Below, piece by piece: positions 59,623-60,404 of a DNA stretch of 64,000 nt. Origin of the DNA: Escherichia coli (lineage in GTDB: Bacteria; Pseudomonadota; Gammaproteobacteria; Enterobacterales; Enterobacteriaceae); assembly GCF_013315695.1 (NCBI RefSeq), contig NZ_CP054353.1, one strand, 5' to 3'. Each line of letters opens with the position of its first letter. Position 1 is the stretch's first letter. The translations under genes were made by a program, and so were the position numbers. The notes under the pieces were generated by a model. It had not been told where the DNA came from. It saw only the letters and a program-made list of their open reading frames with translations, and did no database searches.

Positions 59623-59778
59623 CGACAGCGAGGTGTTTAGTGTGCCATGTCAGGCGAGAAATTCTATTGGATGAATCAAGTCCAACTTACTCATTGTCAA
59701 TTTCATGGTTGATTATTCGAAACGTGATGCTATTTCCAACATCAACGCTATAATTGCAGAATAATTGTAGATACATTT

Positions 59779-60068
59779 TTGTATATACAATTAGGGATGG
59801 CAATTATGCCAATGGAGTTTGAATGGGATGAAAACAAGGCCAAAAGTAATCGGGTGAAACATGGCATCCGCTTTGAAGATGCGGTGTTATTGTTTGATGA
59901 TCCACAACATTTGTCACAGCAAGAACGCATAGAAAACGGTGAGTATCGCTGGCAGACATTACGGCATCGTGGTTATTCTGGTTGCGCATACCATCCGTTT
60001 CGAAAGCGGAAATGAAATTATTCGAATCATCAGTGCACGAAAAGCAGATCGTAAAGAGAGGAATCGCT
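59779..60068 (+). pseudogene. BrnT-like (DUF497) toxin, frameshifted
   Basis: N-terminal MPMEFEWDENKAKSNRVKHGIRFEDAVLLFDDPQHLSQQERIENGEYRWQT then an aberrant tail; the expected C-terminus (...RFESGNEIIRIISARKADRKERNRYEHG) is encoded in another frame at ~59990-60070. Confidence 0.6.
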
Positions 60069-60371
60069 ATGAGCATGGTTAAACATAAACGAGGGACCTC
60101 CTCTACACTCGATGTGCAGCATGAGGCCGAACTGAAGGCGCTGGCGAATAAATCCGACGAAGATATTGATTACAGTGATATCCCACCTTCCAGCGATGAG
60201 CAATGGTCTAACGCCGAACGCGGTAAGTTTTATCGGCCATTGAAAACTCAGGCTTCGGTGCGTATTGATGCTGATGTGATGGAATGGTTGAAGCGACCAG
60301 GTAAAGGCTATCAAACTCGCCTGAACGCAATTTTACGTGAAGCGATGCTGCGCGATCAGAACAAAAAATAA
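60069..60371 (+). CDS. BrnA-like antitoxin
   Basis: 100-aa product MSMVKHKRGTSSTLDVQHEAELKALANKSDEDIDYSDIPPSSDEQWSNAERGKFYRP... directly after the toxin remnant. Confidence 0.6.
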   Translation: MSMVKHKRGTSSTLDVQHEAELKALANKSDEDIDYSDIPPSSDEQWSNAERGKFYRPLKTQASVRIDADVMEWLKRPGKGYQTRLNAILREAMLRDQNKK

Positions 60372-60404
60372 TTCAGGCCGCCACATGGCGGCCATCATCC
60401 AAAA

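Follow-up and report, generated by a model that had tools for sequence, protein, structure and literature searches.

The immigration control region (ICR) of Escherichia coli is a defence island lying between the anchor genes yjiA and yjiN, and it was defined by way of the 'empty site' of E. coli C (PMC12707154, a 2025 review). Among enterobacterial ICR loci, Type I restriction systems are found in 36%, Mrr in 22% and McrBC in 6%, and the toxin-antitoxin systems listed for the region are brnAT, symE/symR and rpn (PMC12707154). E. coli W and the Crooks strain (ATCC 8739) are without hsdMRS, mcrBC and mrr, a condition that has been linked in Crooks to IS insertions (PMC3032704). Insertion sequences offer well-characterized routes to such changes: intramolecular replicative transposition in cis produces deletions, and the same process in trans produces inversions accompanied by inverted target duplications (He et al. 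2015, PMC4471558). IS1-family elements transpose replicatively (PMC4471558), and replicative transposition of IS1 has been observed within the E. coli chromosome (PMC12428005). Both phenomena, the variable or empty ICR and the deletion or inversion brought about by an IS, are already well documented.

Here we describe the ICR in a 64,000-nucleotide stretch of E. coli chromosome (the window, meaning the whole of the DNA analysed). This locus is very probably an IS1-truncated, restriction-less ICR allele, derived from an ancestor of the type found in strain C25 by an IS1 deletion and reshaped later by an IS1 inversion. The restriction-less allele is of a common and already recognised kind. Specific to the window's lineage are only a 12.9-kb IS1 inversion and an extra IS1A, and the mechanism involved is a textbook one.

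The complete genomes nearest to the window are those of isolate AF3 (NZ_OZ547117.1) and strain MSB1_4I (NZ_LR898874.1). AF3 matches window positions 327-57440 at 99.89% identity and 58209-64000 at 100%, the sole structural change being an additional IS1 in the window at 57441-58208. Both AF3 and MSB1_4I show 60 differing positions in 57 kb and are without this IS1. Since AF3 is nearly identical with a single structural change, its annotation can be transferred to the window. Frequencies given below come from junction and segment probes compared with 5,426 complete E. coli genomes. The features of the region are collected in Table 1.

Table 1. Features of the restriction-less ICR and its surroundings in the window, with positions in the K-12 reference segment (L003) for aligned stretches.
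Feature	Window position	Strand	K-12 (L003) position	Remarks
Aligned stretch	39735-43243		1-3509	uxuA, uxuB, uxuR and final bases of yjiC
IS1-1 (IS1A-like)	43244..44011	-		Within yjiC, 10-19 nt from its 3' end
Aligned stretch	44012-44418		3501-3907	3' part of yjiC
yjiC (DUF2686), 3'/C-terminal fragment	44012..44418	-		K-12 orientation, 97%
IS1-2	44419..45186	-		Left edge of inversion; 768/768 identical to IS1-4, opposite orientation
Aligned stretch	45186-57440		16791..4537, opposite strand	Inverted block, 97.4%
Inverted block	about 45187..57440	-		From alignment to K-12; gene names from AF3
mdtM, intact	45457..46689	+		410-codon open frame; 270 bp from IS1-2; AF3 annotation
IS1-3 (IS1A-like)	57441..58208	-		ytiC-yjiC intergenic; private to the window's genome
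Aligned stretch	58209-58855		4545..3898, opposite strand	DNA upstream of yjiC and its 5' part
yjiC upstream region and 5'/N-terminal fragment	58209..58854	+		Inverted relative to K-12
IS1-4	58855..59622	+		Resident IS1 of the putatively emptied island; right edge of inversion; insA and insB frames open
yjiA-proximal island remnant with brnT-brnA cassette	59623..60404	+		782 bp, from end of IS1-4 to yjiA stop
brnT pseudogene	59806..60082	+		11-bp deletion (atcggcctggt) after 59958
brnA antitoxin, intact	60069..60371	+		Pfam PF14384, 3.1e-17, model positions 1-68 of 68
yjiA	60405..61361	-		Conserved right anchor of island, followed by yjiX and btsT; from K-12 collinearity

The MG1655 chromosome of K-12 has the order mdtM, ytiE, rpnD (yjiP/Q), yjiR, yjiS, yjiT, yjiV, mcrC, mcrB, symE/symR, hsdS, hsdM, hsdR, mrr, yjiA, which agrees with the order given in a preliminary description of this DNA. 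The 19,118 bp at L003 16792-35909 have no counterpart in the window. The window was searched by tblastn at E<1e-3 with the K-12 proteins RpnD, YjiR, YjiS, YjiT, McrC, McrB, SymE, HsdS, HsdM, HsdR and Mrr, and with HsdR, HsdS, HsdM, the restriction endonuclease, SymE, BrnT and BrnA of strain C25. Nothing except BrnT and BrnA was matched anywhere in the 64 kb: the window holds no match to HsdR, HsdM or HsdS of either strain, representing Type I restriction, and none to the Type IV enzymes Mrr, McrB and McrC or to the C25 restriction endonuclease. The proposal that hsdRMS, mcrBC and mrr are missing from the window, where the interval beside yjiA measures only 782 bp, is thus borne out.

A search for these genes elsewhere in the genome had also been suggested, and it was carried out on close relatives with a chimeric megablast query. 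As bait this query contained brnTA with its 11-bp deletion together with yjiA-yjiX, and as reverse-complemented test pieces it contained hsdR, hsdM, mcrB and mrr of K-12 and hsdR, hsdM and the restriction endonuclease of C25. At megablast sensitivity the query found a single place in the chromosomes of AF3, MSB1_4I and LHM10-1, a member of the same clone, and hence no hsd, mcr or mrr homologue at a second site; nearly all of the approximately 23 genomes with the brnT deletion likewise gave one place. The test speaks for the chromosomes of relatives, at megablast sensitivity, and for the two Type I families in the query along with mcrB and mrr from K-12 and the endonuclease gene from C25; a divergent Type I or Type IV system, one borne on a plasmid, or one in the genome of the window strain itself would have escaped it. 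An earlier version of the query gave two places in AF3 and MSB1_4I, as a hidden copy of the cluster might, and the second was traced to btsT in the bait matching its paralogue cstA (75% over 407 bp in a local test). The absence of hsd, mcr and mrr from the chromosomal site is real.

The region is arranged differently from K-12 on its two sides. From the yjiA stop codon onward the window is collinear with K-12 (60405-64000 corresponding to L003 35910-39505 at 98.7%), so that yjiA, yjiX and btsT follow as expected. On the other side, yjiN and mdtM, which should lie collinear with yjiA, have both been carried to the end of an inversion remote from it: between identical, opposed IS1 copies, 12.9 kb reaching from within yjiC to mdtM, which is included, stands in reverse. 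The block reads, in reversed K-12 order, mdtM upstream region, mdtM, yjiN, yjiM, yjiL, ytiA, yjiK, yjiJ, kptA, yjiH, yjiG, iadA, hypT, iraD, idlP, ytiD and ytiC. As a result mdtM adjoins uxuR-proximal DNA, some 13.7 kb from yjiA. The preliminary description had placed the interval between mdtM and yjiA, which does not hold, as it is a fragment of yjiC that abuts the IS1. This 5' fragment of yjiC stands against IS1-4 beside brnT, and the 3' fragment is annotated in AF3 as a DUF2686 pseudogene lacking its N-terminus; mapped onto K-12, the two fragments share the 9 bp of the target duplication. Of the 5,426 complete genomes, AF3 and MSB1_4I alone carry the yjiC|IS1 inversion junction at 100% identity, and the inversion is therefore lineage-specific. 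In LHM10-1, iraD through mdtM is deleted.

Four IS1 copies lie in the region, each of 768 bp with the expected ends (GGTAATG/GGTGATG...), and in length and terminal inverted repeats they agree with what is known of IS1, as do the open insA and insB' frames of IS1-4 and the direct 9-bp duplications of IS1-1 and IS1-3; in relatives the elements are annotated as IS1 family. IS1-1 and IS1-3 are identical at 766 of 768 positions, and these IS1A copies are approximately 91% identical to IS1-2 and IS1-4. IS1-1, also present in AF3 and LHM10-1, has the direct 9-bp target duplication ATATAATTC on either side, and IS1-3 the direct 9-bp duplication CAAATTCCA, so both are simple insertions. The flanks of the other two copies are of a different kind. 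IS1-2 is flanked on its left by CTCAACAGG and IS1-4 by CCTGTTGAG, and these two are reverse complements, forming an inverted 9-bp duplication on the yjiC side. IS1-2 has its IRR end on the yjiC target and retains at its IRL end an old mdtM-side flank (AAATTTTAA, reverse complement TTAAAATTT), and IS1-4 retains at its IRR end an old brnT-side flank, CGACAGCGA. Identical opposed copies, one old flank for each, and an inverted target duplication together are what the trans pathway predicts.

The old flanks of IS1-2 and IS1-4 match those of the single IS1 found at this site in uninverted strains, and IS1-4 is identical at 763 of 768 positions to the same-site IS1 of one such strain, EC3. A target duplication was sought for this resident IS1, and the mdtM-side flank (AAATTTTAA/TTAAAATTT) proved unrelated to the brnT-side flank (CGACAGCGA). 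Because its old flanks do not match, the resident IS1 is without a target duplication.

Between IS1-4 and yjiA lies the remnant of the island, its edges being the first base past IS1-4 (59623) and the base before the yjiA stop codon (60404). Its alignment to K-12 gave no match; it is 100% identical to EC3 except for an 11-bp deletion, and approximately 96% identical to C25. It may be added that an interval of this size is too small to hold GmrSD. BrnT and BrnA form a type II toxin-antitoxin system, known originally from Brucella abortus, in which the antitoxin neutralises the ribonuclease activity of the toxin. The deletion, seen by comparison with EC3, CU568-3 and C25, shifts the frame of brnT after codon 51 of 95; BrnT gave a tblastn match broken into two frames, and the annotations of AF3 and LHM10-1 also record brnT as frameshifted. 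The unbroken allele of EC3 covers the entire Pfam model PF04365 (BrnT_toxin) at 4.7e-24, and the window copy falls short of a full-length toxin domain. The BrnA protein is 98% identical to that of C25 over 100 aa, and its gene adjoins that of the toxin as expected, the start of brnA (60069) overlapping the end of the brnT frame (60082). A scan of BrnT and BrnA against NCBIfam gave no matches, whereas the Pfam matches are clear. From its reading frames, the window allele is predicted to make only the antitoxin, leaving brnA an orphan antitoxin gene. The preliminary description saw here only an IS1 copy and a degraded brnT/brnA-like pair; this is right for brnT and wrong for brnA, and it understates the four IS1 copies of the region.

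Strain C25 (NZ_CP127314.1) carries a haplotype with the order mdtM, rpn, yjiR, yjiS, symE, hsdR, hsdS, hsdM, restriction endonuclease, brnT, brnA, yjiA, and it is the best model of the ancestor. The old IS1 flanks of the window are contiguous with the C25 segment (L007) at positions 8732 and 20001, and what is missing by comparison is L007 8733-20000, 11,268 bp holding rpn, yjiR, yjiS, symE, hsdR, hsdS, hsdM and the restriction endonuclease gene. K-12 has no brnTA and no match to the remnant, and is therefore a sister haplotype rather than an ancestor. By this alignment, the lost DNA was that of a haplotype ending in brnTA and not the K-12 cluster.

The brnTA segment occurs at this site, once per genome, in 2,112 of the 5,426 complete genomes. 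A probe for the intact restriction endonuclease|brnT junction of C25 was matched in full in 881, and in a further 1,112 the match set in precisely where IS1 is inserted. A full match to the IS1|brnT junction was likewise found in 1,112 of 5,426 genomes (20%), the same number as the partial matches to the C25 probe. The IS1-truncated allele is old and common to approximately 20% of complete E. coli genomes. Uninverted examples with the order mdtM-IS1-brnT-brnA-yjiA are EC3, CU568-3, ESY002, EC581, DP051 and MSB1_1D. On the mdtM side the flank comes in two or more sequence types, one that of the window, which is K-12-like and whose junction 447 genomes carry, and another that of EC3, with a dienelactone-hydrolase fragment; more than one event, or recombination, is therefore needed to explain all IS1-truncated alleles. 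A comparison of the yjiA-proximal junction with other strains had been recommended in order to define the deletion. That comparison does define it, relative to the C25 haplotype and not to K-12, and the presence of the junction in 1,112 genomes means that the deletion is not specific to this strain.

By these findings the course of events began with a C25-like ICR haplotype, extending from mdtM to yjiA and carrying Type I genes and brnTA. An IS1F-like IS1 lies directly upstream of brnT, and the 11.3 kb (in C25 coordinates) from there to 270 bp upstream of mdtM is gone. The element's lack of a target duplication is the mark of IS1 adjacent deletion (intramolecular replicative transposition in cis) or of recombination between two direct IS1 copies, and the DNA was probably lost by one of these routes. 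We infer that the resident IS1 was inserted first and the deletion came after; no genome was found that combines retained restriction genes with an IS1 before brnT and its 9-bp duplication. Later, in the window's lineage, the 11-bp deletion killed brnT and orphaned brnA, and an IS1A inserted at the 3' end of yjiC. The resident IS1 placed a second, identical copy in inverted orientation in yjiC, the 12.9 kb between the two being flipped, and another IS1A inserted between ytiC and yjiC. The inversion could be the product of one-step intramolecular replicative transposition in trans, or of two steps, the insertion of a copy and then homologous recombination across the inverted pair; the same sequence results from both routes, which are therefore indistinguishable. 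An uninverted intermediate with the second IS1 in yjiC was not found by the junction probe among the 5,426 complete genomes.

The absence of the restriction cluster might in principle reflect its removal to another place by IS1-driven rearrangement rather than its loss, and the inversion adjoining the site does show that the region has been rearranged, and 64 kb is all of the genome that the window covers. The window does, however, contain the inversion's two ends, and ICR genes are present at neither, the left reading uxuR-IS1-yjiC'-IS1-mdtM and the right yjiC'-IS1-brnTA-yjiA. No protein-level match to the cluster was obtained in the window, pieces of hsdR, hsdM, mcrB, mrr and the restriction endonuclease gene from K-12 or C25 found no second place in AF3, MSB1_4I and LHM10-1, and the one extra place in the first megablast was cstA, so that translocation is highly improbable. 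Nor is it probable that the inversion and the split yjiC are artefacts. Repeats that are identical over 768 bp, like these IS1 copies, classically lead assembly astray, but the junctions are 100% identical in two independently deposited complete genomes, AF3 (UK) and MSB1_4I, and genuine transposition would be expected to leave precisely this inverted 9-bp target duplication; we regard misassembly as most improbable.

A further idea is that mdtM-brnTA-yjiA represents an ancestral empty state, and that K-12 and C25 acquired their Type I clusters later by insertion. In its favour, E. coli C has historically been called an 'empty site' and most enterobacterial ICRs are without a Type I system (PMC12707154). 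Against it, the junction is occupied by an IS1 lacking a target duplication, the C25 sequence runs on unbroken in both flanks as far as the IS1 ends, and 1,112 genomes break exactly at the IS1 insertion point. Moreover, the genes rpn, yjiR, yjiS and symE, common to the otherwise differing K-12 and C25 haplotypes, are gone as well. We consider an ancestral empty site improbable. Because the target duplication is missing and the shared framework genes have disappeared with the rest, the site was in all likelihood once occupied and was emptied by an IS1-associated deletion, rather than never filled. As for the deletion itself, homologous recombination between direct IS1 copies upstream of brnT and of mdtM would, like transposition, leave one IS1 with unmatched flanks, and the lineage is rich in the element (at least 39-40 places per chromosome), yet no intact cluster bracketed by two IS1 copies was seen among the few genomes inspected. 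Such recombination seems unlikely, though by no means negligible. Its sequence outcome is identical to that of deletion by transposition in cis, and the evidence therefore does not discriminate between them.

A more tentative and rather doubtful reading of the deletion and the later inversion is that the IS1 upstream of brnT acts as a long-lived and still active 'eraser', which from one fixed anchor point remodels the island and the adjoining DNA again and again, and that the orphan brnA may protect against incoming toxins of the BrnT type. This reading is suggested because a single clone shows both the 12.9-kb inversion (the window, AF3 and MSB1_4I) and the iraD-mdtM deletion (LHM10-1), and because at least two mdtM-side junctions exist across the species.

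The window strain, like roughly a fifth of sequenced E. coli, lacks genes for Type I and Type IV restriction at the classical locus. This is of relevance to predicted methylomes, to transformability, and to barriers against plasmid and phage uptake, and its practical weight is modest. With no Type I or Type IV restriction predicted at the ICR, any restriction in the strain would come from elsewhere, for example from a Type III-like operon upstream. The preliminary description had pointed to an unrelated restriction-like operon in a tRNA-associated island, and PADLOC supports the operon, with matches at 13705-23104 to a DrmD-like SNF2 helicase (4e-199) and full-length Type III Mod and Res; no tRNA genes were found in the 64-kb window or in the 42 kb upstream in AF3. 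The inversion also has a consequence for surveys: the anchors are no longer collinear, and surveys that define the ICR as the DNA from yjiN to yjiA would therefore mis-score this lineage. The emptied ICR of the window opens no new biological question.

Set beside described systems, the locus shares with E. coli C, Crooks and W the same yjiA-adjoining site without hsdRMS, mcrBC and mrr, the 'empty site' of E. coli C being likened to the window allele by its description and not by junction sequence. Unlike the window, E. coli W carries pac there, and the window for its part has the yjiC-mdtM inversion, in which it differs from all three strains. The ICR of K-12 has the same anchors (mdtM/yjiN and yjiA) and flanks 97-99% identical to those of the window, but the 19.1 kb between its anchors is entirely absent from the window, and K-12 is without brnTA. 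The C25 haplotype is closer, its brnT-brnA-yjiA segment and mdtM flank being collinear with the window at 96-98.6% identity; it retains the 11,268 bp of rpn-to-endonuclease genes and an intact brnT where the window has an IS1. Like other BrnT/BrnA systems, the window has an overlapping gene pair with the toxin first, and it differs from them in its frameshifted toxin gene. Opposed identical IS copies around an inverted segment, with an inverted target duplication, are known as trans products of IS26, Tn4401 and IS1-family elements, just as an IS without abutting duplications, like the window's resident IS1, is known among their cis products. The cases of He et al. concern mostly plasmids, IS26 and 8-bp duplications, whereas the window presents a chromosomal IS1 with duplications of 9 bp.

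The resident IS1 (IS1-4), which lies beside brnT in the emptied immigration control region and bounds one end of the 12.9-kb inversion in the window, has a different history in strain LHM10-1. This strain belongs to the same clone as that of the window, sharing both the IS1A at the 3' end of yjiC and an 11-bp deletion in brnT. In LHM10-1, ytiD adjoins the resident IS1, and the entire stretch from iraD to mdtM has been deleted rather than inverted; this deletion is an alternative outcome at the same IS1 that gave rise to the inversion in the window. In this lineage, IS1 is apparently still active today. 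Chromosomes of relatives carry IS1 at 39-40 or more places, and an additional IS1A-like copy in the window (IS1-3) is missing from both of the closest complete genomes, AF3 and MSB1_4I.

Among IS1-truncated alleles, the DNA between mdtM and IS1 comprises at least two unrelated sequences, exemplified by the uninverted strain EC3 (L005 18990-19232) and by the window (45187-45478), which implies that deletion or recombination has affected the left junction more than once. The type present in the window is K-12-like, with its junction found in 447 genomes, while the EC3 type contains a fragment of a dienelactone-hydrolase gene and has the first seven codons of mdtM altered.

Genome-wide presence/absence testing by megablast for hsd/mcr/mrr-type genes in relatives contains a methodological trap. 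The btsT gene of the window (62001-62393) and its paralogue cstA of K-12 (L008 4220-4615) share 75% DNA identity over 407 bp, which is high enough to yield a megablast match; the 'second place' reported by this test was thus a spurious product of btsT matching cstA.

Of the fim genes in the window, fimB (28752-29354) is cut short by a stop at codon 162 of its 200 codons and is called a pseudogene in the AF3 annotation, and fimE and fimA have open frames, in contrast to the internal stop that the AF3 annotation gives fimA.

Features of the upstream island and of the IS1-associated regions.
Feature	Coordinates	Strand	Remarks
CP4-57/KpLE2-like island segment	1-13200		GTPase, Ag43 autotransporter, YeeR, antirestriction protein, JAB-domain (RadC-like) protein, YeeU/CbtA toxin-antitoxin pair
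Three-gene operon, upstream genomic island	13705-23104	+	helicase, Mod, Res
Phosphorothioated-DNA-binding restriction endonuclease (frameshifted, partial) and HNH endonuclease fragments	23765-24493		annotation transferred from AF3
IS1-3, between ytiC and yjiC	57441-58208		9-bp duplication CAAATTCCA
LHM10-1 (NZ_CP037903.1), resident-IS1 region	L004 13137-16782		

Neither a tRNA nor an integrase was found within the 64-kb window. The three-gene operon may be the main restriction system of this strain. The Type III methyltransferase (Mod) and Type III restriction subunit (Res) that it encodes are both full-length, and next to it, judging from the AF3 annotation, lie what seem to be the remains of a further defence gene. 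The helicase of the operon is a DrmD-like SNF2 protein matching PADLOC DrmD at 4e-199, and the pairing of such a DISARM-type helicase with a Type III system is an unusual combination.
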